A stretch of DNA of 64,000 bases. It comes from a candidate division FCPU426 bacterium (GTDB taxonomy: Bacteria > Oederibacteriota > JAAXVQ01 > JAUVAV01). Both the position numbers and the translations under genes were made by a program. A model generated the notes under the pieces. That model saw only the letters and a program-made list of their open reading frames with translations. It did not search any database and was not told the origin of the DNA. The DNA lies in contig DAOWGI010000092.1 in NCBI GenBank assembly GCA_030637655.1, forward strand, positions 26,161-90,160, written 5' to 3'. Positions 26,355 to 47,747 of this stretch are shown in pieces (the first letter of the stretch is position 1; every line of letters begins with the position of its first letter).

Positions 26355-27218
26355 TCATGCCCGGGGATGTGCTTTGCGATAGACGGACTTCAGTTTTTCT
26401 GCTGTGACATGCGTATATATTTGCGTAGTGGTCAAATTGGCATGCCCCAACAACTCTTGCACTGAACGCAAATCCGCGCCATTATCCAGCAAATGCGTCG
26501 CAAACGAGTGGCGCAAACTGTGCGGTGACAAACCGCGTTTGGCGCCCACTTGCCGAATATATTTATCCGCCAAGCGTTCCACGCTTCGCGGTGTGAGTGT
26601 GCCACCGCGCGCGTTTCTAAACACGTTCGCTCCCATAGGCGACGGATCAGCTTGTAAATATCTCTGCAAAGCCGCAATGGCCGGTTCACCCAGTGGAACA
26701 ATGCGTTCCTTACGCCGTTTGCCCAGCACCCGAACCAATCCGCAGGCAAAATCAATAGCCTCCGGTTTTAGGGTTGTCAATTCGGACAACCGCATACCGG
26801 TTGAATACAAGGTCTCCAGAATCGCACAATCCCGTTTTCCTAAACGTGTTTGTGTATCCGGCGCTTGCAACAATGCCAGTATACTTTTCCGGTCAAAAAA
26901 ACGCGGTAGACGGTGTTCCCCTTTAGGTGTGCTTACCGTGGCAGCCGGATTCTCCAACACGATACCTTGCCGGAGCAAAAACCGATAAAACGTTCTCAAG
27001 CCGGCCAGGCGTCTGACAATGCCGGCTCGCGCACTCTGACGTTCGCTGAGTTTAGCTAAATAAGCACGTATGATACGAAATGTCACTTCGCGAGGAAATA
27101 ATTTACCGGCAAAAACCTGGAAATCACGCAAATCCTGACCATAGGCCCTGATGGTATGTACAGAGGCATTGCGACCGTGCTGTAAATAATCAAGAAACGC
27201 CTGTACGGCATCGTTCAC
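26355..27218 (-). CDS. xerC: tyrosine recombinase XerC/XerD family (CodV-like)
   Basis: Catalytic R...HxxR...Y motifs (HSLRHSFATHLL, LGHANLTTTQIYTHV). GTG start with GTGA overlap onto the upstream ORF. Conserved synteny with hslVU. Confidence 0.85.
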   Translation of the reverse strand: MNDAVQAFLDYLQHGRNASVHTIRAYGQDLRDFQVFAGKLFPREVTFRIIRAYLAKLSERQSARAGIVRRLAGLRTFYRFLLRQGIVLENPAATVSTPKGEHRLPRFFDRKSILALLQAPDTQTRLGKRDCAILETLYSTGMRLSELTTLKPEAIDFACGLVRVLGKRRKERIVPLGEPAIAALQRYLQADPSPMGANVFRNARGGTLTPRSVERLADKYIRQVGAKRGLSPHSLRHSFATHLLDNGADLRSVQELLGHANLTTTQIYTHVTAEKLKSVYRKAHPRA

Positions 27219-28363
27219 GAACTTGCCTCCGCCTGGAATTTTTCCAGCAGTCGCGAAAATTCATACAAAAATTTAATAATGGAAAAATTACCTTGGTAAT
27301 TCTTTTTACTAGTGGTAATTTTTTCGTTCAATTCCTTCAGGCCATGAACAAAAATAGTAGTCGGCAATTTTTTCTTCATCGCACTCAGACGAAAACCAGC
27401 CAGATCATTCATGCCCTTCTGTAATTTCTCATCGCGTTGATCCAAAGGCAGACTGTTTTTAGCTTTTAAGATCAACTCAAAATTAACCTGTCCTCCCGGC
27501 AACAATGATCCATCATCGCGTTTGTCCACCCCTTGGAAGAGTCCCGGGTGTTTGCTGCGGGCTTGTGCGAAACACTCCGTAAACATGAGATCAATCTCGG
27601 TGGACTCCAAATGCTTGGCACTGGTTTGTGACATGATACGATACAATTCTTCATAAATGGCCGTCAAACAGAGATCCAAAATCTCAACCGCAAACTGATC
27701 TTTTTTCTCATCTGCCTTAAGCTCCGGTTCCGGCGGTGGTGCGAAACGGGCACTGCGGTCATCGTGCAATTCTTCTTCACCGACCGATTCATACACGGAT
27801 ATTTTACCACGCTCATCGGAATTTTCCACCATTTCAGTAACCCACTTCACCGGAAATTTCATTTGTTCAGGACTGACTTGTTCGGAAAAATAACCCTCCC
27901 GTGGCTGTCCTCCCAAGAAAGTAAGATAATTCAACGCGTTGTTTATTTTTACTTCCAAATAACCGGTAAACCGTTTGCGCGCGAACAGACTGAGCAGTTG
28001 CTTGAAATTGATCAGTTTGGTTTTCAATCCACAGTGTGTGGGCTCAAAAATAAAGGTGCCCATAATCACGATCATCAGAAGTTTGGACGTTTCGTAAAAA
28101 CTGATCGTCCCTTCCTTTTCAGTTCGCAATTTGTTGAGCGCTTCACTCACGGTCATGATTTCGCGGCCATCAGGATAAAAGCGGCCGGCTTTGACACCTT
28201 TACCGCCCAGTAAAAAAATAATATCCTGAGAATCTTCATAGCGCACATCCAAATAACTGGCCACCCTACTCTGACTTTCCGCCAGGATTTTATCCAGTTT
28301 CGCTGTTGCCAAAGGAATGTTTTCCACCACCGTGCGCATGGCTGGGAGTTTCAAATGATTCAT
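27215..28363 (-). CDS. hypothetical protein, no confident family (weak resemblance of two segments to DUF4388-type motifs)
   Basis: A 382-aa ORF with an ATG start whose ATGA overlaps the topA stop. It is co-oriented with, and tightly packed between, topA and xerC. It has no recognisable catalytic motifs. The central region is acidic. Confidence 0.5.
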   Translation of the reverse strand: MNHLKLPAMRTVVENIPLATAKLDKILAESQSRVASYLDVRYEDSQDIIFLLGGKGVKAGRFYPDGREIMTVSEALNKLRTEKEGTISFYETSKLLMIVIMGTFIFEPTHCGLKTKLINFKQLLSLFARKRFTGYLEVKINNALNYLTFLGGQPREGYFSEQVSPEQMKFPVKWVTEMVENSDERGKISVYESVGEEELHDDRSARFAPPPEPELKADEKKDQFAVEILDLCLTAIYEELYRIMSQTSAKHLESTEIDLMFTECFAQARSKHPGLFQGVDKRDDGSLLPGGQVNFELILKAKNSLPLDQRDEKLQKGMNDLAGFRLSAMKKKLPTTIFVHGLKELNEKITTSKKNYQGNFSIIKFLYEFSRLLEKFQAEASS

Positions 28364-30669
28364 GCGGTTTCACCCTCCCCGGATTCTGCCGGCTGTTCCA
28401 AGCGTGTGTAGTCACATCCTTCCACCGGACATACCAAGGCATCCCCCGTACGTTTGGAATGTTTGCGCGCCAAATATGGATTGTCGCATTTGGGACATTT
28501 TTCCAATACCGGTTTATTCCAGGAAACAAAATTGCATTTGGGATAACGACTGCAACCAAAAAACATACGTCCCCGCCGGCTTCGGCGTTCGATAACTTGG
28601 CCGTCACAATCCGGCAAAGGACAATCCAAACCAATCTCTTTGTTGATGGATTTGGTAAATTTGCATTCCGGATACTTGCTGCAGGCTAAAAATTTACCAA
28701 ATCTACTGTATTTAATATGCAAAGGACTTCCACAGGTTTCACATTTCTCATCAATGGTTTCTTCGTCTTTGACCACAATATTGCCTTGCTCATCCTTGCC
28801 CATGGGCTTGGTATTCCGGCAGGCCGGATACTTGGAGCAGGCAATAAATTTTCCGTGCCTCCCCCACTTCACCGTCAATTTGGCGCCGCATTTTTCACAA
28901 ATCTCATCCAATTCCACTTCCACTTCTGATTTGATATCCTGCATATGCTTTTGCGCCTTGTCCAAATCCTGCTGGAATGATTGGTAAAACTTTTTTAAGA
29001 CTGCGATCCACTTGGCGTTGCCGGTTTCAATCTCATCCAGCTCATTTTCCATGGAAGCGGTAAATTCGATATCCAAAATATCCGGAAAACTTTCCACCAG
29101 CAGATCATTAATAATAATGCCTATTTCTACCGGAGCAAACCTTCCGTTCTTGCGTTCAATGTAATTACGGACCAAAATTGTACTAATAATCGGCGCGTAC
29201 GTACTCGGCCGCCCAATATTATTTTCCTCCAATGCCTTCACCAAGGTAGCATCATTGTACCGTGGCGGCGGTTGGGTAAATTTCTGTTCAGGCCGAATTT
29301 CCTGCATCCGCACTGCTTGTTGCTCTTCCAAGAGCGGCAATAACTTATCGTCGTCCTTGGAATTCGTTTCAGCTTCTCCGTTGTTGACCGGTTCTTCGCT
29401 TTCAATATATACGGACATAAAGCCTTTAAACTTCATAATAGAACCGCCGGCCCGCAAGGTATACGCTCCGGCTTGAATATCCACCAGGGTGGCGTCAAAA
29501 CGGGCCGGGGTCATTTGCGAAGCCACAAAACGCCGCCAAATGAGCCGGTATAACTTAAATTGATCAGGTGTCAGGTGCTTTTTAAGCGCATCGGGTGAAT
29601 TTTCTTCCAAAATATACGTCGGACGAATCGCTTCGTGCGCATCCTGCACCTGCCGCTTGGCTTTGTATTTCGGTGGTTTGGCCGGCATGTATTCTGCGCC
29701 GTACGTCTGAGTAATAAAATCACGCGCTTGCGCCTGCGCTTCCTCATTGACCCGCACCGAGTCCGTGCGCATATAAGTAATCAAACCGATTGGCCCTTCG
29801 CTGCCAATATCCAACCCTTCGTACAACTGCTGAGCAACCATCATGGTTTTCTTACCCGTAAACCGCAGCTTATTGGCAGCTTCTTGTTGGAGCTTACTGG
29901 TAATAAAAGGAGGCGCCGGCATCCGCCGCTGCTCTTTTTTTTCAACCTTAACAACTTGATAGGATGCTTGCTCTAAATCCTCAACCACCTGCCGGCTTTC
30001 CGCTTCATTGCACAGCTCCAGTTTGGCATGGTCTTTTTGCGTTACCAGGGCCGTAAAACTTTCCTTGGCCTCTGTTTCCAGGGAAACCTCGATCTTCCAA
30101 TATTCCCGCGGCTCAAAGTTCTCGATTTCGCGCTCCCGGTTGACCACTAAGCGAACGGCTACGGACTGTACGCGCCCAGCGGAAAGTCCCTTGCGAACTT
30201 TTTTCCACAGTAATGGCGACAACGAATAGCCCACAATACGGTCCAGGATTCTTCGTGCCTGTTGTGCGTTGACCATATTGTCATCTATGGCTTGCGGCTG
30301 CTCAATGGCAAGGCCTACCGCCTTCTTGGTAATCTCATTGAACATGATCCGAAACACCTTCTTGTTCTTACTCTCAAGCTCATGTTTCAAATGCCAGGCA
30401 ATGGCTTCCCCTTCCCGATCCGGGTCAGGAGCCAAGTAAATGTTATCCGCAGAGCCGGCCAGACGTTTCAGTTCTTTTAATATCTTGGAACGGGAACGAA
30501 TGGTTATATAATGTGGTTTAAACTCATTCTCAAGATCTACCCCCAATTTACTCTTGGGCAAATCACGCACATGCCCCATGGAAGCTTTGACCAAAAACTT
30601 TTTCCCTAAAAACTTATTAATTGTTTTCGCTTTTGCCGGTGATTCAACAATAACCAGACTTTTTCGCAT
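28360..30669 (-). CDS. topA: DNA topoisomerase I
   Basis: TOPRIM N-terminus (LVIVESPAKAKTI). Several C-terminal Cys4 zinc-ribbon motifs (CEKCGAKL...CSKYPAC, CETCGSPL...). Confidence 0.95.
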   Translation of the reverse strand: MRKSLVIVESPAKAKTINKFLGKKFLVKASMGHVRDLPKSKLGVDLENEFKPHYITIRSRSKILKELKRLAGSADNIYLAPDPDREGEAIAWHLKHELESKNKKVFRIMFNEITKKAVGLAIEQPQAIDDNMVNAQQARRILDRIVGYSLSPLLWKKVRKGLSAGRVQSVAVRLVVNREREIENFEPREYWKIEVSLETEAKESFTALVTQKDHAKLELCNEAESRQVVEDLEQASYQVVKVEKKEQRRMPAPPFITSKLQQEAANKLRFTGKKTMMVAQQLYEGLDIGSEGPIGLITYMRTDSVRVNEEAQAQARDFITQTYGAEYMPAKPPKYKAKRQVQDAHEAIRPTYILEENSPDALKKHLTPDQFKLYRLIWRRFVASQMTPARFDATLVDIQAGAYTLRAGGSIMKFKGFMSVYIESEEPVNNGEAETNSKDDDKLLPLLEEQQAVRMQEIRPEQKFTQPPPRYNDATLVKALEENNIGRPSTYAPIISTILVRNYIERKNGRFAPVEIGIIINDLLVESFPDILDIEFTASMENELDEIETGNAKWIAVLKKFYQSFQQDLDKAQKHMQDIKSEVEVELDEICEKCGAKLTVKWGRHGKFIACSKYPACRNTKPMGKDEQGNIVVKDEETIDEKCETCGSPLHIKYSRFGKFLACSKYPECKFTKSINKEIGLDCPLPDCDGQVIERRSRRGRMFFGCSRYPKCNFVSWNKPVLEKCPKCDNPYLARKHSKRTGDALVCPVEGCDYTRLEQPAESGEGETA

Positions 30670-30707
30670 AATATGTTGCCCATTCCTTATTTTGATACTG
30701 AATTATA

Positions 30708-30736
30708 ATTTAAGCATAGGCCGGTTTTAAAGTCAA
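30708..30736 (-). promoter_or_regulatory. putative sigma70-type promoter for topA (-35 TTGACT, 17-nt spacer, -10 TTAAAT)
   Basis: Read on the minus strand about 40-65 nt upstream of the topA ATG. It is a sequence match only. Confidence 0.3.
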
Positions 30737-30792
30737 TAAAAAGGAAAACCGCTTTAATTCAAGGGTTTTTAACTATTATGTGACCTATGCCG

Positions 30793-31578
30793 TTAAAACC
30801 GCAAAAGCAAGGTGCCGAGTAAGCTGCCGGATTTGATGGTTAATCTGGATATCTCTCCCAAAGCATTCCCTTCAAACCAACGGAATTGATAAAGAAAATC
30901 CAATCCCCACCCGGCTGAATCCCGGTACTCCATTTTCAAGCATCCCTGCCATTGTGTGCCCACTCCGGCTTCCTGGTATTCTGTGACCAGAAAATCATCC
31001 TCAATAAAATACAGACTCTTATAAAAATCCACTACTGCCCGCGGAGCGTACACTACGGCTATAGAGGCAGTAACATCCTGCGCCTGTAGAAATTCCCACT
31101 CCACTAATCCCGTAATTGACTGTAACTGATAATACATGAAACGATAGCCGGTACGCCCGGAATAATGCTCCAGAGTCCGACTTGAAAACTGCAGACCAAC
31201 AGCCATGGCTCCCCAAAACTGATATTTACCTTCCAACACTATGCTCTCTTGACCGGCCCAAAAAAAGGGATCTATGGAAATGGTATCCAGATTTGTCCCC
31301 TTCCATTCCCCGCTCACATTCCACTTCGAAGTGCCGGCCTGTAAGCGTGCAAACCAAGGCCTTTGAGCATACGTTATTTGCACTGACGCCAAAGTACTCT
31401 GCAACATAGTATGATAGTATTCTCCCTGCACGTCCTCCACCATGACTTTGACCGTATAATACTCCATGCCGGCCCCGGCTGTTACCTCAGCCCGGCTTGA
31501 GGCGGAAAAAAGCATGCTCAATAGCACAACCGTTACATGCAGTCCGGATTTTAGGGCCTTTATCCTACGTTTATGCAT
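30793..31578 (-). CDS. outer-membrane beta-barrel protein (porin-like), signal peptide, C-terminal Phe
   Basis: The ATG at 31578 gives the signal peptide MHKRRIKALKSGLHVTVVLLSMLFSASSRA. Alternating amphipathic beta-strands end in ...LLLRF. The longer track ORF would overlap dprA by 124 nt. Confidence 0.55.
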   Translation of the reverse strand: MHKRRIKALKSGLHVTVVLLSMLFSASSRAEVTAGAGMEYYTVKVMVEDVQGEYYHTMLQSTLASVQITYAQRPWFARLQAGTSKWNVSGEWKGTNLDTISIDPFFWAGQESIVLEGKYQFWGAMAVGLQFSSRTLEHYSGRTGYRFMYYQLQSITGLVEWEFLQAQDVTASIAVVYAPRAVVDFYKSLYFIEDDFLVTEYQEAGVGTQWQGCLKMEYRDSAGWGLDFLYQFRWFEGNALGEISRLTIKSGSLLGTLLLRF

Positions 31579-32687
31579 TTTTCCCCCACCCAATGATAGA
31601 ATTGACCAGGCGCACATTGTACCATACCTTGCAGCTCCAAAGACAACAGACTCTCCAGCAGTGCCGGCAAAGGCAGTTGGCATTGAATAAGCAATTGATC
31701 AATATGCAGCGCTCCGCTTTCCAACGCTTGACAAATCTTCTGGTTTTCCGGGGATAGTAATGGGATGGCTTTTTCGCGCTGGTTGGGTTGCATTGAACTT
31801 GTATGCTTCTCGTTGATTTTGGGCAACTCCTGCAATATATCTTCTACCTGAGTAACCAATTTGGCGCCATCTTGAATCAACGCATGCGTGCCCTGCGAAA
31901 GCGACGACTGAAAAGAACCCGGAACAGCAAACACGTCCTTTCCTTGTTCGCTTGCCCACCGCGCGGTAATCAGCGCTCCGGAACGAACACGTGCCTCAAC
32001 CACTAATACTCCTTGGGACAAACCGCTGATCACGCGATTGCGTCTGGGAAAAAGCTGTGGTACTGCGGGTTGGGCCATAGGAAATTCGGATATGACGGCA
32101 CCCTGCCGCGCGATGCTGTGCCATAGTTCTTTGTTTTCCGGAGGATACACATGGGAAAGACCGTGTGCTACCACGGCCAATGTGCGCCCATTATTTTGCA
32201 AGGCCGTCATATGCGCCTGCGTATCAATCCCTAAAGCCAGGCCGGAAACAATAGTCAGACCCTGTCGGACTAAATCTCTGACCAATAACTTCGTTGCCGT
32301 AATACCATAAGCACTGGGCCGTCGGCTGCCCACCACAGCCAAGGCCTTGCTGTCCTCCGGCAGCCAATTCCCCAGAACATAGAGCACTGGCGGAGAAAAA
32401 TCAATGGAACGCAATACCGCAGGATATGTTTTTTCCTCTAAGGTCACAATACGAGCGCCACACGCCCGGCTTTTTTTCAATTCTTCCTCAGCCACTTGCT
32501 CCCAGGCTGTGCCGCAAATCCGTTCTGCCAGTTCCGGACTAATATGTCGCATCGCGGCCAAATACCGGCTCGGTTGCGCAAAAACCTTGCCGGCTGAACC
32601 AAACTGTTCCGCCAAGCGCCGGGACAAGACCGGCCCTACTCCGGCAATACTATTTAAAGCAATCCAAGCATATGAATTTTTAGTCAT
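31560..32687 (-). CDS. dprA: DNA processing protein DprA/Smf
   Basis: Rossmann-like DprA core (LAVVGSRRPSAYG...ALGIDTQAHM) with ATG start. Confidence 0.85.
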   Translation of the reverse strand: MTKNSYAWIALNSIAGVGPVLSRRLAEQFGSAGKVFAQPSRYLAAMRHISPELAERICGTAWEQVAEEELKKSRACGARIVTLEEKTYPAVLRSIDFSPPVLYVLGNWLPEDSKALAVVGSRRPSAYGITATKLLVRDLVRQGLTIVSGLALGIDTQAHMTALQNNGRTLAVVAHGLSHVYPPENKELWHSIARQGAVISEFPMAQPAVPQLFPRRNRVISGLSQGVLVVEARVRSGALITARWASEQGKDVFAVPGSFQSSLSQGTHALIQDGAKLVTQVEDILQELPKINEKHTSSMQPNQREKAIPLLSPENQKICQALESGALHIDQLLIQCQLPLPALLESLLSLELQGMVQCAPGQFYHWVGEKCINVG

Positions 32688-32692
32688 GGGAA

Positions 32693-34837
32693 TTAGCCGA
32701 AAAAAATTTCAATCCGAGATCCATTTTTGAGTGGTGTGGTAAATGCCGCTTTTTGTCCATCCACCATCAATTGTATGGTCCCGGCATTGGGAGGTGGTGT
32801 GAGATCCAGACCCTCCAAAATATGTGACAACGTCGGAGAATAACTTTCTTTTTTTTCTATCACAATCTCAGCATTTTCAGGAACTAAGGCATCAGGTGTT
32901 GCTCCCTCACCATTGATGGTTATCCTCTTGCCGCCGCTATCCAACATTTTGGTTTTTCCATTTACGGCGACTGAAATCTGATTGGACGGTGGAAGTTCAA
33001 TTCCTAAATCGCGCATGCGCAGTTCAACCATATCCGTCTGTTTCCATTCAATCCGGTCATTGGGACGAGGACAATAGTCAATAGTTACGTTTTGCCGGTT
33101 GGCGAGAATAACTGTTCCGTATTCCCGGTGAACTTGCTTTTGTTCTCCATTCACAAAAAACCGGACCTGTTTCGAAGTGGCGGCAACCGCGGATAATTCC
33201 GGCATCAATTCTCCCAAGGTTTTTTGTGAGCCCCAGTTCAACTCAGCCCGATCCGGGATTTCCGCCTCTGGATCAACCGGTTGATCTTGCTGCCTCAGCA
33301 CCGGTTCCAACTCCAGGTTGTGTCCATTACAGGTACACCAAAAAGGACCCCCTGGACGAGGAACATCTACCGCCTTTAAACGCGCGGCCCGTCCATTCAC
33401 AGCAGCCGTCAGTTCAATGTCATCACCAGCCTGAACTACGGTATCCAACGTGGCTGGTTTGGAATTGAGTTTTATTTCCGCCAAGGTTCCGAGGGTCCCG
33501 GGAACGGTCATCAGACGGCCGGCCAAAGTATAGGTTATAGCCTGGCCAGGCCGCGGATGCAGTGATTTCATCTCTTTGCCGGCTGAGAGCAGCGCTTCAA
33601 AAACCGTCGGCTTACTACTTAAGGCTAAAAGCTGAATCGGTTGTTTATTAACATAAGCAGTAATAAAACGGAGTCCTTTGCCACGCGAAGCCAGCAACGC
33701 GATTCCCAAGGGGGTTATCCCCTCAATGCCTTTGAGTGTGGGTGTGGGGTTTTCCAGTTCAGGGATGGTTTCCGGTCCCCGACATCCGACCCGTGACGGA
33801 TCCAGTTTTAGAGCTTCTGCCACGCTTGGTCCCAAGCCCGGTGTCGCGCTGCCGCCGCCTACCATGACCACTGCCCGAGGAACAGCTCCGTTTAATTTTA
33901 TAATGGTATCGGCAATAGCTTTGGCCAGTTTTTTCACATCAGGTTGGAGGTTCTGCCGGATTTCTGCGGCAGAAACATTCATTTTTTGGCCAAGAATGGT
34001 GGTAAAGCCCAGCCGGGCATCCCCGGCTGTTTCCAATGCGCGTTTTACTTTCTCAGCCTCATTGAATTCCAAAAGGTAATGTTCGCACAAGCGCTCGGTA
34101 ATTTCGTCACCGGCGTGTGTGACCATGGCATAAGCAAAAACCGAGCCATTGCGAGTAATGGCAATATCCGAGGTTCCCGCGCCCACATCCACCAGGGCAA
34201 TATTCATTCTCCTTAGATCATTCGGAATGGTCGCTTCAATCGCCGCAATAGGCTCCAAGGTCAAACTGCGTGCGGCCAGATTCGCACGTCGCAAAACCGC
34301 CATGAGCGAATCCACCACCTGACGCGGCAGAAAGGTAGCCAACACTTCAACTGACATTTCCTGCCCTTGATGTCCCACTAAATCATCCAACACTTCATTG
34401 TCCAGCCTAAAACGAATAGTGGAAAACCCAACACAATGCAATTGATGTTTGTTACCCTGGGAGTGTAAAGCTGTTTGCGCGGCCCGGGCGGCAGACAACT
34501 CCAAGGCCAGAACATCCTCTCGCGTAATTTCGGTCCTGGCAGGGAAATAGCGTTTTTGTTCGGCGGATTCGGTTAATAAAGCGCGACCCGCGGCAGCCAC
34601 GGCTGCTTCGGTCAATGTAATTCCCAGCTCTGCTTCCAACACCGCTTTGACCTGAGACACAACTTTGGCCACTGCTTCCACGCGATGCACCTGTCCACCC
34701 AGCATCGCACGATCAGGGTGTTCGTGTACACACGCAGCCAATACTTTCAGGCCCTGCTTGTGTTGCTTGACCACCACACCGGCAACTTTTCTGGTTCCAA
34801 TGTCCAAAATAAAAATAGTATCGTGCTTAGGACTCAC
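32693..34837 (-). CDS. actin-like (ASKHA; FtsA/EutJ/PilM-type) ATPase domain fused to 4-5 tandem ThiS/MoaD-like beta-grasp repeats; unknown function
   Basis: The N-terminal ~370 aa carry the phosphate-1 motif (FILDIGTRKVAGVVV) and phosphate-2 motif (ALVDVGAGTSDIAI). The C-terminal ~340 aa contain repeated modules of the form phi-x-phi-x-VNG...L..GD-IE-phi. Examples are ISVAVNGKTKML...AEIVIEK and IQLMVDGQKAAF...SRIEIFFG. GTG start with GTGA overlap onto the cheC stop. Confidence 0.6.
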   Translation of the reverse strand: MSPKHDTIFILDIGTRKVAGVVVKQHKQGLKVLAACVHEHPDRAMLGGQVHRVEAVAKVVSQVKAVLEAELGITLTEAAVAAAGRALLTESAEQKRYFPARTEITREDVLALELSAARAAQTALHSQGNKHQLHCVGFSTIRFRLDNEVLDDLVGHQGQEMSVEVLATFLPRQVVDSLMAVLRRANLAARSLTLEPIAAIEATIPNDLRRMNIALVDVGAGTSDIAITRNGSVFAYAMVTHAGDEITERLCEHYLLEFNEAEKVKRALETAGDARLGFTTILGQKMNVSAAEIRQNLQPDVKKLAKAIADTIIKLNGAVPRAVVMVGGGSATPGLGPSVAEALKLDPSRVGCRGPETIPELENPTPTLKGIEGITPLGIALLASRGKGLRFITAYVNKQPIQLLALSSKPTVFEALLSAGKEMKSLHPRPGQAITYTLAGRLMTVPGTLGTLAEIKLNSKPATLDTVVQAGDDIELTAAVNGRAARLKAVDVPRPGGPFWCTCNGHNLELEPVLRQQDQPVDPEAEIPDRAELNWGSQKTLGELMPELSAVAATSKQVRFFVNGEQKQVHREYGTVILANRQNVTIDYCPRPNDRIEWKQTDMVELRMRDLGIELPPSNQISVAVNGKTKMLDSGGKRITINGEGATPDALVPENAEIVIEKKESYSPTLSHILEGLDLTPPPNAGTIQLMVDGQKAAFTTPLKNGSRIEIFFG

Positions 34838-35448
34838 CGAGGCACCTGAGTAGCGCGCAGGATAACATCCAAAGATACTTTATCCGGCATTAAAAAAAAG
34901 TAGCCTTGAATCACCCGGGCGGATTCCATAAACTCGGTTTCAATACAAATGACTTCCATATTAGCCGGAAATCCCTTGGACAGCTCACTGATTACAGCTT
35001 CCGCCATATCAAATATCAACTGCGGAACAGATTGTAACAACAAGAGCCCTAAAAATTCGGTCAAGGCATTGAGATACGCGCCGGCCAGAATATTCCCGGC
35101 CTCTTTGATGGCTGAGTGCTCCATCATGGTAAGTATTTGTCGCTCTTCGGTATCTTGTTTGGTTAATAAGCCGGCCATCTGCAGGGCGCTTTTACGCGGA
35201 AGGATCAAAACGATCTTGGCGGAAATGTCCCCCAAGACGTGCATGGTAACTCCGGCAATAAGCGACTGCGCCCCACCTACCAAATGCACCACTTTTTCCA
35301 TAGGCAAACACAGCACCTTGGGAACGGTAATCATAATCTTTTTTTCAATGAGTTGCGAGAGAGCCGTAGCCGCATGTCCGGCCCCTATGTTTCCTACCTC
35401 GCGTACGGCATCCAATTGTATATCTGTGAGAGCTCGGATATTAGGCAA
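34834..35448 (-). CDS. cheC: CheC-family chemotaxis phosphatase
   Basis: Two CheC-type E-x2-N motifs (REVGNIGAGHAATALSQL and KEAGNILAGAYLNALTEF). 204 aa. TTG start as annotated. Confidence 0.75.
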   Translation of the reverse strand: MPNIRALTDIQLDAVREVGNIGAGHAATALSQLIEKKIMITVPKVLCLPMEKVVHLVGGAQSLIAGVTMHVLGDISAKIVLILPRKSALQMAGLLTKQDTEERQILTMMEHSAIKEAGNILAGAYLNALTEFLGLLLLQSVPQLIFDMAEAVISELSKGFPANMEVICIETEFMESARVIQGYFFLMPDKVSLDVILRATQVPR

Positions 35449-35472
35449 AACGTCTCACCCCCTTACTAAAAT

Positions 35473-37536
35473 CTACTGAACTAATGTGGGTACATCCAAA
35501 ACCAAAGAAATCCGGCCGTCACCCAAAATGGTCACTCCCGAGAATCCTTTAACACTTTTCAACATCTGTCCCAGGGACTTAATCGCGATTTCTTGTTGTC
35601 CCAAGACTTGATCCACCAATAACCCAACCCTCATTTCTCCGACTTCGGTTACCAGAACCGCACGATCAATGCTTTTTGATTCTTCACCCGGGACCTCCAG
35701 GATTCTATGCAGCCGTAATAAAGGCAACACACTATCCCGGTACATAACAACTTCACCCTGCTGTACAAACTTAACGTCTGATTCAACAAACTCAATGGTC
35801 TCGACCGTATTGATGACCGGCAAGGCATACACTTCCTTGCCCACGCTAAACAACATGGCTTGAATAATAGCCAAGGTCATAGGCATACGCATAATAAAAA
35901 CGCTGCCTTGGCCCGGATCGCCCTCAATACGCAAACTCCCGCCAAAGGATTCAATCTTGGTGCGCACGGCATCCACGCCCACACCGCGTCCGCTGATCTC
36001 GGTAACCTCTTGGAGGGTGGTAAATCCCGGCAGGCTGATCAGATTGACGGCCTCCTGGTCGGTTAAGCGCTCGCTTTCCTCCGGACTCATCATCCCGCGA
36101 TCCACAGCCGTTTGCCGCAATTTTACCGGATCGAGACCTATCCCGTCATCAACCACTTTTATAATAACATGATTCTTCTCCCGCATGGCAGTTAAACGCA
36201 CGGATCCCTGCCGTGCTTTTCCCTTCTGTATACGAACCTCCGGTATTTCAATACCATGATCCACGGCATTGCGGAGCAGGTGCACTAAAGGATCATTGAT
36301 TTCATCCAAAACCGTCCGATCCAATTCGATCTCTTTGCCTTCCATTTCCAATTCGATCTCTTTGCCGCTCTCTTTGGCCAAATCACGAATCATACGCGGA
36401 AAACGATTAAAAATATGCTCCATGGGAACCATACGTACTTCGGTAACTTCATCCTGCAGATCATTGGTAATCCGATCAAATTGAATCAGCGCTTCTTTCA
36501 ATTCTTTCATGCTGTGTTGTTTGGAAATTTGTGTTAGCCTGATTTTATTGATGACCAATTCTCCGACCAAATTCTGCAGATTGTCCAAACGTTCAATGTT
36601 CACACGGATACTTTGGACCGCACGACCGGTAGTATCCCGATTCTTCCTTTTGCTCGCTTGCCGTGAGGGGGCCACCAATATTTTCGCTTTGGCTTTGGTG
36701 TCACCAAAAAAGTCTTCAATCCGTTCTATGGTCAGAGATTCTATCTCATAGGACTCAAGTTCAGCAATATTTTTCAAGCTACGCTGTAATAATTCTTGCT
36801 TGCGTTGGGACAAAACCAGCAATAAAAATTCCAGATCAAATTCACCTTCCTGCAGGGCCTGCGGATCGGGAAAACTGGCGACAATTTCACCGTATTCGGA
36901 AAGTGCTTTGTACACCATGAAGGCACGAACCCCTTTAAAAGAACAGGACGCAGCTACCCGAACCCGGACACCATAGGTCAAGTACCCTTCCGCATCCGCT
37001 TGGGCGATTAATTCCTCCATATGTTCTATGTTCAAATCCTCTTCAGCGCTCTTGCTCCCGCCAAACAATTTTTTCTCTTCACTTTTCTCTTTTTTCTCCG
37101 GGACCTCCGCAGATGTTGTCAACAGGGCTTTTTTGTCTTCTAAAGTCGGCTCGCTATCTCTCTGGTAAAAATCCTTTAGTTTTTTCAGCAACGGATCAAC
37201 ATCAATATTTTTCAGTTCCGAGGTTGATATTTCTTCAATCAGCATACCCAGGGTATCCAGACATTCAAATAAAACGTCTACAATGGGTGAGGTAATGGTC
37301 TGCTGACGGGCACGCAATTTATCAAGAACATTTTCCATTTGGTGGGTAAGTTCTGTGATCTGATCAAACCCCATAGTGGCGGCCATGCCCTTGAGCGTAT
37401 GGGCGGTGCGAAAAATATCATTCAGGGATTGCTGATCTGAAGTGTCTTTTTCCAACGCCAATAAGGCCTGATTGAGGCGGTCAAGGTGTTCGAGGGATTC
37501 ACTTATAAATAAATCTTTATATTCTAATGTATCCAT
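35473..37536 (-). CDS. cheA: chemotaxis histidine kinase CheA
   Basis: HPt domain (FRTAHTLKGMAATMGF), HATPase region (HLLRNAVDHGIE ... GRGVGVDAV) and a C-terminal CheW-like domain. Confidence 0.9.
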   Translation of the reverse strand: MDTLEYKDLFISESLEHLDRLNQALLALEKDTSDQQSLNDIFRTAHTLKGMAATMGFDQITELTHQMENVLDKLRARQQTITSPIVDVLFECLDTLGMLIEEISTSELKNIDVDPLLKKLKDFYQRDSEPTLEDKKALLTTSAEVPEKKEKSEEKKLFGGSKSAEEDLNIEHMEELIAQADAEGYLTYGVRVRVAASCSFKGVRAFMVYKALSEYGEIVASFPDPQALQEGEFDLEFLLLVLSQRKQELLQRSLKNIAELESYEIESLTIERIEDFFGDTKAKAKILVAPSRQASKRKNRDTTGRAVQSIRVNIERLDNLQNLVGELVINKIRLTQISKQHSMKELKEALIQFDRITNDLQDEVTEVRMVPMEHIFNRFPRMIRDLAKESGKEIELEMEGKEIELDRTVLDEINDPLVHLLRNAVDHGIEIPEVRIQKGKARQGSVRLTAMREKNHVIIKVVDDGIGLDPVKLRQTAVDRGMMSPEESERLTDQEAVNLISLPGFTTLQEVTEISGRGVGVDAVRTKIESFGGSLRIEGDPGQGSVFIMRMPMTLAIIQAMLFSVGKEVYALPVINTVETIEFVESDVKFVQQGEVVMYRDSVLPLLRLHRILEVPGEESKSIDRAVLVTEVGEMRVGLLVDQVLGQQEIAIKSLGQMLKSVKGFSGVTILGDGRISLVLDVPTLVQ

Positions 37537-37790
37537 GCAATCCTCTGGGCAGAGTGCTCTATGGTTTTTTCCCTACCCCCAAAACATATAGAGGGAAATG
37601 GTGTATGTTAAGTTAAATTATGTTATCAAGAAAACCAGACCCACGCAACCACCTTTTTTCTCCCGCCAATACACCACTTATTACTACAGTATCTCTAGGT
37701 TCGACGAAAACTAACATATCTATAGGATAGAATTAATACTCCTGACCGAATCGTGGCCCCTCAACTCACCCCTAGTATTCTTTTTTCCGA

Positions 37791-38999
37791 CTATATGACC
37801 TTGCCCAAAATGCAATTCAAATACCGGCTTTCCGGTAATTGTGACTTCTCCGGATGGTCCCGGTCCGGACCAAATTGAGTAATTATTTTTAATTTCCTTC
37901 CGGTGTTACTCACTCCTTGTAAGGCAATTTCCGCAAAAGCCTTGCGTGTGACATGATGAGAGCACGAACACGTCAAGAGGAGTCCTTGTGGATGTAATAA
38001 TTGGGAGGCCCGTCGATGCAATTCCCGATATCCGCGCATCGCGTCTGCCAGCTCTGCTTTAGAGCGCGTGAAGGGCGGCGGATCCAGTATAATGGTTGAG
38101 TACTTCTTTTTTTGCTTTACCGCTTCGGACAAATAGGCAAATGCATTTTCTTTTCGGACGTGAATGGCATGCTGCATCCGGTTGAGCCTGGTATTTTGCT
38201 CTAAGTGCGCCAAAGCTTGCGCCGATGTGTCCAGAGCCAATACTTGACTGGCACCGGCCCACACCGCTGCCAGGGAAAACCCGCCGGAATTGGCAAAAAC
38301 ATCCAGTGCGATACCGTTTATTTTTTGCTCTCGTAAACAACGGCGTGCAGCACGCTGATCCAAATAAAAACCGGTTTTTTGACCTTTTGCTAAATTCACC
38401 CGGTACTTTATCGGACCCTCAAAAATTTCAGTTTCCGGTTCCGGCGCTGCCTCCCCGGGAAACCAAATCCACCCTTGTTTGGCAGGAAGTCCTTCCAGCC
38501 TGCGACCGTGTCCATCACTTCGTTCGTAGATTCCTGCCGGTTTGCAACGCGATATCAGCCAGTCGACAATATAATTTTTACGTTTTTCCATCCCCTGAGT
38601 AATAAACTGTACTACCAGAAAAGGCGCATAATAATCGCAAATCAATCCTGGCAAACCGTCGGCTTCCGACCACACCAAACGCCAAGCATTGGTCTCCTTT
38701 GTCAGAAATACTCGCTGTGAACGAGCCCGGTCCAATTTCCGTCCCAGCTCCCTTGCTTCGTCCGGAATCCCACTACCCAGGCGAGCAATAGGTGTATATA
38801 ACATGCGTATACCAATCTGTGACAAAGGATTGACATATCCATACCCCAAACACTGCTGTTGCTCAGAATGGACCTCTACCAAATCCCCGGGACAAATACC
38901 GGCCGGCCAGGTCTGAATTTGATGGGCAAGCACCCAAAGATAACCCTGGTGTAGACGTTGGGAAGCGATTGCATTGATAACGACTTTGGCAGGAACCAC
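37791..38999 (-). CDS. rlmI: class I SAM-dependent rRNA (cytosine-C5) methyltransferase, RlmI/RlmK-like (PUA + MTase)
   Basis: The SAM-binding motif (GIALDVFANSGGFSLAAVWAGASQVLALDTS) and the DPPPF motif are present. GTG start. Confidence 0.8.
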   Translation of the reverse strand: MVPAKVVINAIASQRLHQGYLWVLAHQIQTWPAGICPGDLVEVHSEQQQCLGYGYVNPLSQIGIRMLYTPIARLGSGIPDEARELGRKLDRARSQRVFLTKETNAWRLVWSEADGLPGLICDYYAPFLVVQFITQGMEKRKNYIVDWLISRCKPAGIYERSDGHGRRLEGLPAKQGWIWFPGEAAPEPETEIFEGPIKYRVNLAKGQKTGFYLDQRAARRCLREQKINGIALDVFANSGGFSLAAVWAGASQVLALDTSAQALAHLEQNTRLNRMQHAIHVRKENAFAYLSEAVKQKKKYSTIILDPPPFTRSKAELADAMRGYRELHRRASQLLHPQGLLLTCSCSHHVTRKAFAEIALQGVSNTGRKLKIITQFGPDRDHPEKSQLPESRYLNCILGKVI

Positions 39000-39013
39000 T
39001 CGCGTTGTCTTCC

Positions 39014-39910
39014 TTAGGCCGCCAGACAGGCGACTGCTATAGCATAAAAACGATTATCCACATTGTCTGCCCGGGAATTCAAAACCATTGGCACTTTAGC
39101 TCCCACAGCAATCCCACCCAGCGGTCCTTCCGCTAAAAACGTCTGCGATTTGGAGAGCATATTGCCGCACTCGATATTCGGAACCAAAAGAATATCCGCA
39201 TCACCTTGAATCGGTCCCTCAATTTGTTTTTCTTTACAAACCCATTTCGAAAGCGCGTCATCCAGAGCAAAGGGGCCAACCACATGCGCTCCGGTTATTT
39301 TTCCCTGGGCCGCGAGCTCTACTAACTGGGCCGCTTCTACGGTCACCGGCATTTTTTCAGTCACATATTCCACAGCAGCCAGGATGGCGGCTTTGGGTTG
39401 CTGGTAGCCCAAACGGCGCGTAAAATCAATGGCATTCTGTAAAATATCCGCTTTGCGCTGTAAATCCGGAGCAATGTTGACCGCTGAATCAGTCACAAAC
39501 AGCAAACGACCGCAGGGCTTGCTCTCTAAAACAAAAATATGTGAGATAGGTTTATTATTGCGTAATCCAAATTCTTTGTTCAACAACGCGGACAAAATAG
39601 TGCTGGTCTTCAAGTTACCTTTCATTAAAACCTGCGCTTTTCCTTCAGCAATATATTTCACCGACTCCATTGCTGCCAGATGTTCATCTGTGGTATCCAC
39701 CAGCGCTTTGATCGGAAAATCCACTTTCAAGTCAGTACGCAGTTGCTCGATCTTGCTCTTTTCTCCGGCTAGAGCAATTTCAGCAAATCCGGTCTCATAA
39801 ACACGCTGAAGCGCAAGCATAATCTCCTTGGTTTCCGGCACAGCCACGGAAATGGTTTTTTTAGGCGCGCCTTTGAGTTGTTCTACAATTTCGGCAAAAT
39901 TTTTCAACAT
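39014..39910 (-). CDS. phosphate acetyl/butyryl-transferase (Pta/Ptb family)
   Basis: Full-length homology to phosphate butyryltransferase and short-form phosphotransacetylase. Confidence 0.8.
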   Translation of the reverse strand: MLKNFAEIVEQLKGAPKKTISVAVPETKEIMLALQRVYETGFAEIALAGEKSKIEQLRTDLKVDFPIKALVDTTDEHLAAMESVKYIAEGKAQVLMKGNLKTSTILSALLNKEFGLRNNKPISHIFVLESKPCGRLLFVTDSAVNIAPDLQRKADILQNAIDFTRRLGYQQPKAAILAAVEYVTEKMPVTVEAAQLVELAAQGKITGAHVVGPFALDDALSKWVCKEKQIEGPIQGDADILLVPNIECGNMLSKSQTFLAEGPLGGIAVGAKVPMVLNSRADNVDNRFYAIAVACLAA

Positions 39911-41695: not shown

Positions 41696-44035
41696 TCATT
41701 CCAAAATATGCGTGGTTAAAAACACAACCAATTCAACCTTATTCTTCGTGCTTACATTGCTCCGAAATAAAAAGCCCAGCAAGGGGATATCTCCCAGCAA
41801 AGGAACTTTAGACTCCCGCATACTTTCTTCATCCCGTACCATACCACCGATCACAATGGTTTCGCCGTCATCCACTAACATTTGCGTGGTCGCAGATCGT
41901 GTACTGGTAATAGGCGGCGAGCCTGTTCCCACCACTGTGGCTACTTCCAGGGTCATAGGATTCAGCAGGACTTGACCCTCTTTGGTGATCTGAGGCTTGA
42001 CTGTCAGACTTATCGGCAGTTCCAGATAATTTACCACATTGGAGACAACACCATTGCTGACATTGCTGGTTGCATAAGGAATGTTCTGACTGGCTTTTAA
42101 AACAGCACTCTTATTGTTCAAAGTGGCAATTCGCGGATTTGAGATGGTATTCACCTTACCCTTGGATTCAAGCGCTGATAAAGTCGCATTCAAATCAATA
42201 CCCTCTTGCAAGGTACCTATAATAATCTGTCCGACTTGTCCTACAGCATCCGGATTGGTACTGGCTGTGAATTGAGGGTCTATGCTCGAACTGATGCTTC
42301 GAGCAGTCCAATTGACACCTAAATCCCGCTGATTGGAGCGTGAGACCTCAACAATCCTGGCTTCAATCATCACTTGCTGCGCTTTAGTATCCAAACTGCG
42401 TATTATTTTAGCGATATGGGTGACCTTTCCCGGGATATCATTAACCACCAGCGAATTTTCGGAATTATTCTCTTGTATGGATCCCAAAGAGGATAGCATG
42501 GGTTGAATCGCGGGCAAGATTTTTTCGGCCTGTGAATAACTCAATACAAAGGTTCGGGTAACCAAACGCCGTTCCACATCCATGCGACGAATGACCTCGC
42601 GCACACGAACCATATCGCTGGGAATGGCGGAAACAATAATGCGATTAGCCGTGGATTCCAATACCACTTTGCCTTTTGCTCCATCTGTCAGAATGGCTTC
42701 TATGGAATCTTTTACATTGGAATCTTTTACTTCCATATTTTTCATAGTAAAGACTCGCGTCTCCACCGGAAATTCAGAAGCCAAACCAATACGCAGGGTA
42801 TTGCCGCTTACCACATAGGCCATTTGGCGGGAACGCAAAATGAAATCCAAAACCGTATTGAACGCCTGTTCCTTAATCGAGAGTGTGACCAGAGCTTGCG
42901 ATTCCTCGATTTTTTCCATACCCGGAGTCAGGACCATGTCAAAACCGGCCTCTGCGGCCAGGGCACGCAACACAGCTCTTAAATCAGCGTTTTGCAAATC
43001 CACGGAAATACGCGAGGTAATATTACCGCGTTTACCAGTGGCTTGAACAGAACCCGGATTATTGAATTCAACTAAAATTTGATTTTGATCTTTAAAAACC
43101 AAATAGGGTGTGGTTTGCGATAACCGCAGGGCAATTTGCACAACCGGTTCTCCCATCACTGTTTTTTGGGCCGCCTTAACACTGCGCACCACACCAATGG
43201 GCAAACGAGGAATCCGTCCATGCCAGGTCAAGTCCGCGCCATGGATTTTGAGAACAAACTTCTTTCCCTGATTGGTTCGTTCCACACGATACCGGACTTG
43301 TCCATTGGTGGTAACGGTAATCCGTGTTTTTTCCCCAAAATCCTGCGCAGTCACATCCACCACTTGATAACCGACTATATCGGTAGTCATTATGGATTTG
43401 CTGTAATGGCTGTTTTTCTTGCTTGCTTGGGGTTTGGCAATAACTGCCTCGCTGCGGGCAGAACCAAATTTCCCGGCATACCGTGCCGGCAAACGCAAGG
43501 TAATACCGCGGCGATGGGTTTCCCGAATCCATTTAACACTCTCATCCAAATCCAAAACCACCCAAACGTTTTCGTCATGCTGCGCCGAACGAATTCTTTT
43601 CAAGGGTGTTTGATTTACCGACAGTCGTGTCGTCTTCCAGGTTAGTAAGGTGTCGTGTACTTTTAAAAGCATCCGGTTTGGTTTGGACAGATAGCTCATG
43701 CTGCTGCTGACTTTCTGCGAGGTAGTAATTTTCACCACCGGCAAACCGTTTTCCGTCTCTACCTGAACCTTAGTTAAGCGCGCGGACCAGGTTGGTTCGG
43801 TGTCGGCTTCAGCTTCCGCCCTGTCTTCAAATCCGCCTTCGTACGGTTCACTCGCGTCGAACTCCCCGGCGGCCGAGGCATCGGCCACCTGTTCAATGCC
43901 AACACCAATAGTACCCTCGGTAGTCACATCATCCAGAGCCCATACCCTAACCGGTGATTGACCTAACCAAAGCACGCTCAACGCTACTATCACGAAGTTC
44001 AGGAATTGTCTCCCCTGCCTTCCAGTTGTATGCAT
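41696..44035 (-). CDS. pilQ: type IV pilus secretin PilQ
   Basis: Signal peptide. C-terminal secretin domain (VPLLGDIPLLGFLFRS...VFLT). Confidence 0.9.
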   Translation of the reverse strand: MHTTGRQGRQFLNFVIVALSVLWLGQSPVRVWALDDVTTEGTIGVGIEQVADASAAGEFDASEPYEGGFEDRAEAEADTEPTWSARLTKVQVETENGLPVVKITTSQKVSSSMSYLSKPNRMLLKVHDTLLTWKTTRLSVNQTPLKRIRSAQHDENVWVVLDLDESVKWIRETHRRGITLRLPARYAGKFGSARSEAVIAKPQASKKNSHYSKSIMTTDIVGYQVVDVTAQDFGEKTRITVTTNGQVRYRVERTNQGKKFVLKIHGADLTWHGRIPRLPIGVVRSVKAAQKTVMGEPVVQIALRLSQTTPYLVFKDQNQILVEFNNPGSVQATGKRGNITSRISVDLQNADLRAVLRALAAEAGFDMVLTPGMEKIEESQALVTLSIKEQAFNTVLDFILRSRQMAYVVSGNTLRIGLASEFPVETRVFTMKNMEVKDSNVKDSIEAILTDGAKGKVVLESTANRIIVSAIPSDMVRVREVIRRMDVERRLVTRTFVLSYSQAEKILPAIQPMLSSLGSIQENNSENSLVVNDIPGKVTHIAKIIRSLDTKAQQVMIEARIVEVSRSNQRDLGVNWTARSISSSIDPQFTASTNPDAVGQVGQIIIGTLQEGIDLNATLSALESKGKVNTISNPRIATLNNKSAVLKASQNIPYATSNVSNGVVSNVVNYLELPISLTVKPQITKEGQVLLNPMTLEVATVVGTGSPPITSTRSATTQMLVDDGETIVIGGMVRDEESMRESKVPLLGDIPLLGFLFRSNVSTKNKVELVVFLTTHILE

Positions 44036-44074
44036 AGGTTGGCGAACGCTCCTTTCATTTTGGTGAAAACGCTC

Positions 44075-44512
44075 TCAGTTCGAGCGAAGCTTAAAAACAA
44101 TCCGCTTCTCATCTTGTATTAATACCACTTCTTTGGGATTCAACACTTTCCCGGTAATCCCCGGAATCGCTTGATGATTTTCGCGGAACAGTTTATTGTC
44201 CTGCAAAATATAACCGAATTTAGTGCCTGTTTGCGAAGCAAATAAGGCCATGGCTTGCTTCGGATTTCGGATCACCCCGGTTAAACGCAAATTCTCAATA
44301 TTCACCTTCTCAATCACATGATGCAAACGACCGGCATACGGTTGCACAAAAGGATCCCGCCGGCCGTGGGCCTCATACTTTATTTTTTTTTGCCGCGGAA
44401 ACGTTTGGGGATCACCAAATCCCGCTACCACCGGCAAGGCAATTCCTGGCAGCAGCAACAATGCGATTGTCGCGTATCCGAATTGCAAACATTTACTGCG
44501 TACGTCGCACAT
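44075..44512 (-). CDS. pilP: pilus assembly protein PilP-like
   Basis: Hydrophobic N-terminus. Conserved GRRDPF motif. Located between pilO and pilQ. Confidence 0.55.
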   Translation of the reverse strand: MCDVRSKCLQFGYATIALLLLPGIALPVVAGFGDPQTFPRQKKIKYEAHGRRDPFVQPYAGRLHHVIEKVNIENLRLTGVIRNPKQAMALFASQTGTKFGYILQDNKLFRENHQAIPGITGKVLNPKEVVLIQDEKRIVFKLRSN

Positions 44513-45612: not shown

Positions 45613-45615
45613 GCA

Positions 45616-46722: not shown

Positions 46723-46895
46723 CCGCGCCTCCTTGTTCTTCTACAACGCAGGTCCCGGTAGCAAAAATTGGGACTGCTGAAAAACCCGAAAAATCCCCTT
46801 TTCTAATTCTAGAGCACATACTTCATGATTTTCTGCCTAGCCCTCGAATAACCTAACACGTACTGGAACTTTTTTCAGCTTCCCAAACGGTAAGA

Positions 46896-46975
46896 GCGTT
46901 TAATTAAACGCCCTTACACGGGCGCACTCAGTGCGCCCCTACAATATCCCCGATTAAAGTCTTCGGGTATGACAA
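46896..46975. repeat. composite repeat: REP-B variant + REP-A unit + half MITE arm
   Basis: gcgtttaattaaacgcccttac is followed by gggcgcactcagtgcgcccctac. The arm atccccgattaaagtcttcgggtatgacaa is homologous to the right half of the 74-bp MITE-like element. Confidence 0.75.
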
Positions 46976-47185: not shown

Positions 47186-47213
47186 TTTACTACATTATCC
47201 TGTGGTTAATAGA

Positions 47214-47708: not shown

Positions 47709-47747
47709 ACCTGCTTACTCCTTCTCTTTTTCTATTTTACCTGTCTG

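Follow-up and report, generated by a model that had tools for sequence, protein, structure and literature searches.

Actin homologues of the FtsA/PilM class are peptide-docking scaffolds rather than motors: FtsA docks FtsN and FtsZ peptides, PilM docks PilN, and the actins of this branch are known as membrane-proximal scaffolds of the divisome and the type IV pilus. Eukaryotes provide the best-known tandem arrays of ubiquitin-fold domains, and bacterial ones appear in PDB entries released in 2025. In the chemotaxis (che) gene clusters of Vibrio and Rhodobacter, the ParA-like ATPases ParC and PpfA position chemoreceptor arrays. Here we analyse a 64-kb stretch of DNA from a candidate division FCPU426 bacterium (contig DAOWGI010000092.1; the whole stretch is called the window) in which an open reading frame (ORF) directly behind cheA and cheC encodes a 714-residue protein, T, predicted to join an FtsA-class actin fold to a chain of five beta-grasp modules. 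Neither a dedicated Pfam or NCBIfam model nor any publication on this family was found, in line with a preliminary description of the locus, which did not recognise the architecture as a described family.

The N-terminal half of T is predicted to adopt an FtsA-class actin fold

The gene for T occupies 32693-34837 on the minus strand and starts with a GTG codon. An AlphaFold2 (AF2) model built on an alignment of 26 diverse T homologues, which is also the basis for statements on invariance, has a mean predicted local distance difference test score (pLDDT) of 85.9. The features assigned to T are:

32693..34837, minus strand: T, FtsA-class actin-fold domain and five tandem beta-grasp modules (ORF list, full-length homologues, AF2 model)
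33683..34837, minus strand: ASKHA/actin-fold domain of the FtsA/PilM class, residues 1-385 (Foldseek, TIGR01174, phmmer)
34787..34804, minus strand: phosphate-1 motif DIGTRK, residues 12-17 (invariant in the alignment; matches FtsA 'LDIGT')
34325..34576, minus strand: inserted subdomain, residues ca. 88-171, at the position of the SHS2-like subdomain 1C of FtsA/PilM (model secondary structure; putative 1C by position)
34166..34189, minus strand: phosphate-2 motif DVGAGTSD, residues 217-224 (invariant; matches FtsA 'VVDIGAGTMDI')
33848..33859, minus strand: adenosine-binding motif GGGS, residues 327-330 (invariant in the alignment)
33503..33673, minus strand: module G1 (hairpin, helix, hairpin), residues 389-445
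33308..33478, minus strand: module G2 (shortened helix), residues 454-510 (hhalign repeats; stacked-repeat profile against SAMP2; putative boundaries)
33122..33304, minus strand: module G3, residues 512-572 (hhalign E 1e-16 to 1e-19 between repeats; stacked-repeat profile)
32939..33115, minus strand: module G4, residues 575-633 (hhalign; stacked-repeat profile)
32696..32932, minus strand: module G5, the most ThiS-like, ending in IEIFFG, residues 636-714 (partial Pfam ThiS match)

Searched against the PDB, the profile of the 26 homologues returns FtsA at the top (7q6g, E 8e-24), followed by EutJ, PilM and MreB. The FtsA structure 7q6f is found by phmmer at E 1.9e-12 and by Foldseek at E 5e-27 with a target-normalised template-modelling (TM) score of 0.83. 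Over the first ca. 390 residues, target-normalised TM scores range from 0.77 to 0.85 for seven FtsA structures (Vibrio, E. coli, Thermotoga, Staphylococcus), compared with 0.67-0.78 for PilM, 0.73 for EutJ and ca. 0.6 for MreB. The Pfam models PilM_2 (partial match, E 3.6e-12), FtsA and MreB_Mbl as well as the NCBIfam models for ftsA, pilM and EutJ all match this half, every one of them below its curated cut-off: TIGR01174 (ftsA) scores 100.3 bits over residues 8-358 with a cut-off of 175.85, TIGR01175 (pilM) 50.5 bits with a cut-off of 133 and NF007009 52 with a cut-off of 409. Residues D12, G14, T15, R16, D217, G219-T222, D224 and G327-S330 are invariant across the 26 homologues, and both phosphate motifs align with the nucleotide-binding motifs of FtsA. 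In the AF2 model the inserted subdomain consists of a strand (88-103), a helix (106-126) and three further strands (133-145, 148-150 and 157-171). As modelled, the N-terminal half is an FtsA-class actin fold, and it very probably binds nucleotide. The preliminary description had put this half near FtsA, EutJ and PilM; the profile, NCBIfam and Foldseek results agree and rank FtsA first, followed by PilM and EutJ.

FtsA (TIGR01174; PDB 7q6f, 1e4g, 3wqu) and, as modelled, T both carry the inserted subdomain (1C) in place of 1B, superpose over ca. 390 columns at the TM score given above, and align at the phosphate-1, phosphate-2 and adenosine motifs. Their identity in Foldseek alignments is however only ca. 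12-19%, and where FtsA ends in an amphipathic membrane-targeting helix, T continues into ca. 330 residues of beta-grasp modules, the last residues being modelled as a strand. T also lies outside a dcw/ftsZ (ftsQ/ftsZ) context in the window, where the neighbours of T are cheA, cheC, dprA and topA and none of the annotated ORFs is an fts gene. T was thus rejected as the divisome FtsA on account of its sub-threshold TIGR01174 score, the lack of a membrane-targeting helix and the lack of a division-gene context; it is a paralogue of that protein.

The C-terminal half is a tandem array of predicted beta-grasp modules

Repeats in the C-terminal half are evident from hhalign comparisons, in which segments 495-552, 553-615 and 616-680 align with one another at probabilities of 98.8-99.1% and E values of 1e-16 to 1e-19. 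The same unit is matched by segment 429-481, and its helix and last hairpin by segment 664-714. Judged by these alignments the repeats are real, far beyond chance. A profile of 72 stacked repeats matches SAMP2 (E 1e-5), PF1061, RnfH, MoaD and ThiS, with the 'GDxIE strand plus helix' portion corresponding to beta2-alpha1 of SAMP2 and the 'VNG..GDxIE' portion to beta3-5. Hairpin-hairpin-helix units were considered and discarded: a helix following the strands does not fit the beta-grasp fold, and the SAMP2 alignment together with the helix/hairpin match to ThiS favours a strand-strand-helix-hairpin order. The tail is best read from the models as five modules, each of the order strand-strand-helix-strand-strand, with almost no linkers. 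A separate AF2 model of residues 384-714 (pLDDT 86.8) shows the last strand of G4 continuing into the first strand of G5 as a single strand (residues 628-641). The stacked-repeat profile additionally gives a weak match (E 5.6e-4) to the N-terminal region of YukB/EssC (PDB 9qks_G, residues 155-196), an ESX/type VII secretion ATPase.

The best Foldseek matches of the tail model are tandem ubiquitin-like proteins, namely the E. coli multi-ubiquitin domain protein 9cd2 (E 4.5e-4), ISG15 and linear di-ubiquitin. Likenesses to RnfH, Mth1743, MoaD, the TGS domains of RelA/SpoT, the transcobalamin beta domain, BubA, a multi-ubiquitin filament protein and ThiS are listed as well. Like T, the multi-ubiquitin proteins (9cd2, 9d59, 9d5b; ISG15, linear di-ubiquitin, USP7 array) contain several beta-grasp domains per chain, and the PDB titles of 9d59 and 9d5b name filaments. 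Their structural match to T is however weak (TM ca. 0.2), they lack an actin-fold domain, and T shows no sign of a defence or ubiquitin-transfer context, according to PADLOC and to its neighbours read by eye.

Pfam matches to the tail are faint. PF02597 reaches 27.9 bits over the whole protein with a gathering threshold of 22.5, no single stretch passes, and isolated modules give E 0.01 at best. The Pfam ThiS match covers residues 666-712 and model positions 20-70 (E 0.01 for the isolated segment), and isolated repeats match, weakly and partially, the second half of the ThiS, TGS and Ub-Mut7C models only. Because these segment matches are weak and partial, five complete beta-grasp domains are not established by sequence alone. 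The proposal in the preliminary description of tandem ThiS/MoaD-like repeats is supported, with AF2/Foldseek, hhalign and the SAMP2 profile pointing to about five modules.

The small carriers ThiS, MoaD and SAMP have the beta-grasp fold in common with the modules of T. In T, unlike in these carriers, the modules are internal, tandem and fused, and among the 163 family members compared none ends in Gly-Gly, seven end in a single glycine and two have Gly-Gly within the last 10 residues. The C-terminus is unconserved in the 26-homologue alignment and in the 163 members. The terminal IEIFFG, which the preliminary description pointed out in addition to the ThiS/MoaD-like repeats, is present in T and is not a conserved feature of the family. 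From their sequences, the modules cannot be open to adenylation or thiocarboxylation in the manner of ThiS and MoaD. The conserved tail positions are turn glycines and asparagines, the median cysteine count in the family is one, and no catalytic or metal-binding signature is visible in the tail, which contains no conserved cysteine, histidine or acidic catalytic residues.

T belongs to a large family with a fixed architecture

A search of the C-terminal profile against 1.84 billion representatives identified 1239 clusters (50% identity) at E ≤ 1e-3 and 424 at E ≤ 1e-30. In the top 150 clusters nearly all proteins are 700-740 residues long and match at ca. 380-715, and the short ones resemble truncated ORFs; as far as these sequences indicate, the tail is therefore essentially confined to the T architecture. 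A few members are one module short (for instance Thermanaeromonas and Calderihabitans, ca. 650 residues). A protein search returned thousands of relatives, with full-length homologues of ca. 710 residues and 37-81% identity in FCPU426, Omnitrophota, Elusimicrobiota, Synergistota-like bacteria, Syntrophomonas, Heliorestis, Thermanaeromonas and Calderihabitans. Further carriers among species-representative genomes are Brevibacillus, many Bacillaceae, Negativicutes, Halanaerobiales, Desulfosporosinus, Dehalobacter, Thermotogota and two Methanolobus genomes.

These relatives are deposited as 'cell division FtsA domain-containing protein', 'pilus assembly protein PilM', 'rod shape-determining protein' or 'ATPase', and the NCBI name of the protein identical to T is 'pilus assembly protein PilM'. 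The impression of a singular fusion given by the preliminary description is thus replaced by that of a large family of fixed architecture, already in the databases under generic names. T is a member of this existing, unnamed and uncharacterised family, a variant of the FtsA/PilM-type bacterial actin homologues. A large conserved family that fuses an actin fold to a ubiquitin-fold array and has no name, curated model or literature that we could find merits attention even if its link to chemotaxis is passive: at least 400-1200 clusters at 50% identity make it tractable for the discovery of a new cytoskeletal function, and cultivable carriers include Brevibacillus, Niallia, Selenomonas, Pectinatus, Syntrophomonas, Heliorestis and Methanolobus.

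T is encoded next to cheA and cheC in distant lineages

In the window T is packed tightly between the following genes:

35473..37536, minus strand: cheA, 687 residues, P1-P5 (Pfam Hpt, P2, H-kinase_dim, HATPase_c, CheW)
34834..35448, minus strand: cheC, 204 residues, 4-nucleotide overlap with T (Pfam CheC E 1.4e-21; NF041093 163 bits)
31560..32687, minus strand: dprA, starting 5 nucleotides past the T stop (Pfam DNA_processg_A E 1e-75)

The overlap is formed by the GTGA shared between the cheC stop and the T start ('cct cgg tga' vs 'GTG AGT CCT'), and cheA lies 24 nucleotides upstream of cheC. The coordinates and bases given earlier for the ORF, its overlap with cheC and the position of cheA were confirmed. 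Given tight spacings on both sides, co-transcription of cheA-cheC-T is plausible and dprA probably shares the transcription unit, which then would not end at T. The description of T as third gene of a cheA-cheC operon consequently stands for its tight linkage to both genes, but dprA is equally close and the unit is probably longer. A consensus scan for promoters and terminators over 27000-39500 found no excess over shuffled sequence (20 vs 16.1±4.0; 24 vs 15.5±4.6) and, as site counts match shuffled sequence, does not define the operon ends.

To place this arrangement in context, the gene neighbourhoods of 170 loci (L numbers) were compared and 163 family members arranged in a distance tree. 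T directly follows cheA or cheA-cheC on the same strand in all 17 in-tree members of two neighbouring groups that include the window, and two partial contigs outside the tree show the same placement. At least four gene orders occur among the che-linked members:

FCPU426 (window and L001), Omnitrophota L004, a PVC metagenome-assembled genome (MAG; L072) and a MAG labelled Methylomirabilis (L036): cheA-cheC-T-(dprA)-topA, the full set in L036 being cheY cheC cheD MCP cheW cheY cheB cheA cheC T (MCP, methyl-accepting chemotaxis protein)
Omnitrophota L012: cheA-cheC-T-cheR-cheY
Elusimicrobiota L086: cheW cheR cheY cheB cheA T cheC cheC cheD cheY
L089: cheA-T-cheC-cheD
L008: cheA-T-cheC-cheY
L142: cheA-T-cheD
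Methanolobus L031 (T at 8001-10103) and L058 (T at 8001-10106), one a complete chromosome: cheY cheB cheA cheC T cheR cheC cheC cheD

The presence of T in the Methanolobus clusters implies its transfer together with the che genes. That T stays within the che cluster through rearrangements, and within an archaeal che cluster, argues for functional coupling over chance adjacency. The link to cheA and cheC proposed in the preliminary description thereby extends from FCPU426 to Omnitrophota, Elusimicrobiota, the PVC and Methylomirabilis-labelled MAGs and Methanolobus.

Gene context suggests a scaffold working with the chemosensory pathway

On the strength of this gene context we propose, with a probability of roughly 0.45, that T serves the chemosensory pathway of the window's lineage as a nucleotide-binding scaffold. 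T would be a soluble protein that has, in place of FtsA's membrane-targeting tail, five ThiS/SAMP-like beta-grasp modules strung into a rigid chain. Binding of ATP is expected for the actin-fold half, which would either self-associate or dock a partner peptide, as FtsA does with FtsN/FtsZ and PilM with PilN. The modules most likely provide protein-binding adaptor surfaces rather than acting as carriers or modifiers, because they lack an activatable Gly-Gly end as well as conserved cysteine, histidine and acidic catalytic residues. Along the poly-beta-grasp tail, Che proteins could find several binding sites; the obvious candidates are CheA and CheC/CheD, the constant neighbours of T, and such contacts may assemble, position or couple the signalling complex. 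The scaffolding or localisation role suggested in the preliminary description is plausible. By analogy, a role in array placement comparable to that of ParC/PpfA is conceivable; these too are cytoskeleton-type nucleotide-binding proteins encoded in che clusters, but with a ParA/MinD P-loop fold instead of the actin fold of T.

A bolder version of this proposal, which we regard as unlikely, would make T an unrecognised core accessory of CheC/CheD-type systems in several deep-branching phyla and Methanolobus: an ATP-dependent, polymerising actin-like scaffold whose tail binds either CheA and CheC/CheD or the receptor baseplate and which assembles or positions chemoreceptor arrays as the actin-fold counterpart of ParC/PpfA, while Bacillota paralogues serve other complexes at poles or division sites. 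If the che linkage is functional, T represents a new component of a much-studied signalling system and a handle on array organisation in the little-studied phyla FCPU426, Omnitrophota and Elusimicrobiota and in a methanogen.

Several observations weigh against a chemosensory role. About 146 of the 163 in-tree members, mostly from Bacillota, Thermotogota and Synergistota-like bacteria, lie outside che clusters, and a che-type gene within 4 kb (a single cheW, cheR or MCP) occurs in just 8 of these 146, which is about chance level. The 17 che-linked cases are mutually related and hence not independent. The che set of the window consists of cheA and cheC only, with no cheW, cheY, cheB, cheR, cheD or MCP gene in the 64 kb, and T is packed as tightly against dprA as against cheC. 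For the modules, the boundaries as well as the beta-grasp topology of G2 to G4 are putative assignments from secondary structure and profile matches. Conserved che-cluster placement across distant taxa, the operational mark of an auxiliary chemotaxis protein, was found for the window's groups and not for the Bacillota majority; the neighbourhood comparison suggested in the preliminary description hence came out in favour of che linkage within the window's group and against it for most of the family. Lone cheR genes (heliobacteria-type L009, L017, L028, L127, L169) and lone cheW genes (L087, L155, L151) were considered as further che links and dismissed, as 8 of 146 loci is about the number expected by chance.

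Outside the che-linked groups T occurs in diverse contexts, which likewise count against the chemosensory proposal. In Bacillota MAGs (L029, L051, L077; Thermosediminibacter-like) the order is minC-minD-minE-T-rodA-M23 peptidase-S2P, in ca. nine Syntrophomonadaceae loci spoIIID-mbl-flgG-like-wecG-T-ctsR, and in the Synergistota-like L087 zapB-zapA-cvpA-mutS2-T. In Bacilli (L006, L007, L035, L040 and ca. 14 others) T is solitary between ccpA-aroA and ytxJ-ytxH-ytxG. One clostridial group has htrA/HD-GYP/glgA/nth-T-GGDEF. The T of L029, L051 and L077, within its classical division/elongation cluster, is shorter (ca. 590 residues; ca. 8001-9760). An integrative model of Mbl with YtxH (PDB 9a51) appeared among the Foldseek matches of the actin-fold half.

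Alternative roles range from doubtful to very improbable

The min, mbl and zap contexts, together with FtsA being the domain closest to the N-terminal half, would suit a general cytoskeletal or envelope factor in division, elongation or polarity throughout the family, with che adjacency as inherited gene order. The window itself is a long one-strand housekeeping run of Bacillota-like order, in which adjacency can be passive. Against this stand the retention of T inside che clusters across the at least four gene orders and the che genes that flank T on both sides in Elusimicrobiota and Methanolobus, since passive synteny is not expected to outlast such rearrangement or a presumed horizontal transfer into an archaeon. 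Contexts in Bacillota, moreover, are specific to single lineages and do not agree with one another. We consider this family-wide role possible but doubtful.

There is a slim chance that T acts on nucleic acid or together with DprA and TopA, with modules resembling TGS or S4-type RNA/DNA-binding domains. The 5-nucleotide gap between T and dprA, the dprA and/or topA genes that directly follow T in the window, L001, L004, L036, L044 and L072, the order dprA-topA-T in the Negativicutes MAG L047 and the matches of the stacked-repeat profile to ribosomal protein uS4, other S4 domains (E 2.6e-4) and Hsp15 are consistent with such a role. The S4 similarity is however restricted to the short VNG..GD.I hairpin motif, and dprA and topA are not nearby in Elusimicrobiota, Methanolobus or nearly all Bacillota members. 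The dprA-topA pair is widely conserved and of housekeeping type, and in one arrangement it simply closes the che cluster.

A role for T in the type IV pilus machine, as a PilM-like component or regulator, is very unlikely. T and PilM (TIGR01175; PDB 2ych, 5eou) belong to the same branch of actin folds, the partial PilM_2 match and the NCBI name point in this direction, and pilT, pilin, pilM, pilN, pilO and pilQ genes lie 7-14 kb upstream of T; in Elusimicrobiota L086 the che cluster comes directly after pilO and pilQ, and L008 has a PilQ homologue upstream. The window encodes a genuine PilM elsewhere, however (45616-46722; 259 bits to TIGR01175, far above the cut-off that T misses), and T was rejected as PilM on this ground. 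PilM lacks a beta-grasp tail, and the fold of T is nearer to FtsA by Foldseek. A pilN beside T is missing from the window, from the loci covered by Pfam gene tables and from the recurrent neighbours, a PilN query matched 0 of 168 loci at E 1e-8, and Methanolobus and many T-carrying Bacilli show no pil context.

Their specific structural and profile similarity to ThiS, MoaD, SAMP and RnfH would suit modules that act as sulfur carriers of the ThiS/MoaD type or in ubiquitin-like conjugation, the latter raised in the preliminary description. This reading was rejected and has a negligible likelihood given internal, nearly linker-free modules, an unconserved C-terminus that never ends in Gly-Gly in the 163 members, no E1, ThiG, MoaE or JAB partner gene around T in the window and no E1/ThiF/MoeB, E2, JAB, ThiG or MoaE recognised among the recurrent neighbours of 88 loci (read by eye from the sequences, with no query searches). 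A Bub/Bil-like defence ubiquitin system is likewise not supported: no such neighbours were recognised by eye, and no defence-system match by PADLOC reached significance, its one marginal hit lying in the actin-fold half (residues 174-228, E 3.3e-4). The sole context tied to MoaD-type chemistry, probably coincidental, is that of one high-GC lineage (L071, T at 8001-10250; L088, T at 7992-10181), in which tatC, moaA, moaC, mog/MOSC-like, H+-pyrophosphatase and molybdopterin oxidoreductase genes precede T; moaE and moeB were not seen there despite the upstream moaA and moaC.

The remainder of the window is a one-strand housekeeping region

All credible genes of the 64 kb are on the minus strand and the GC skew is negative throughout. 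The closest named homologues are from FCPU426 (58-63% identity). The gene order is Bacillota-like, with lepA-hemN ... hrcA-grpE-dnaK-dnaJ ... rsmE and dprA-topA-xerC-hslV-hslU. The pilus genes are:

41696-48887, minus strand: pil set of pilT-like ATPase, pilin, pilM, pilN, pilO and pilQ (secretin, AMIN domains), with pilM-pilN-pilO-pilQ spanning 41696-46722

They are interleaved with shikimate-pathway genes, aroE upstream and aroC-aroK downstream. A 726-residue ORF (13623-15803, minus strand) has no Pfam match and weakly matches an NCBIfam CT351-family outer-membrane beta-barrel model (E 7e-9, 35 bits with a cut-off of 900).

Downstream of dprA the order is a 296-residue ORF, topA, a 382-residue ORF, xerC, hslV and hslU. 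In Bacillota the position between topA and xerC is usually taken by trmFO. The 382-residue ORF found there (27215-28363, minus strand) overlaps the topA stop by 4 nucleotides, gives no Pfam, NCBIfam or PADLOC match and shares 67% identity with the ORF at the same position in FCPU426 L001. The 296-residue ORF between dprA and topA (30793-31683, minus strand) has no family match and as listed overlaps dprA by 124 nucleotides, its true start probably lying further downstream; its positional counterpart in L001 is 40% identical over 226 residues.

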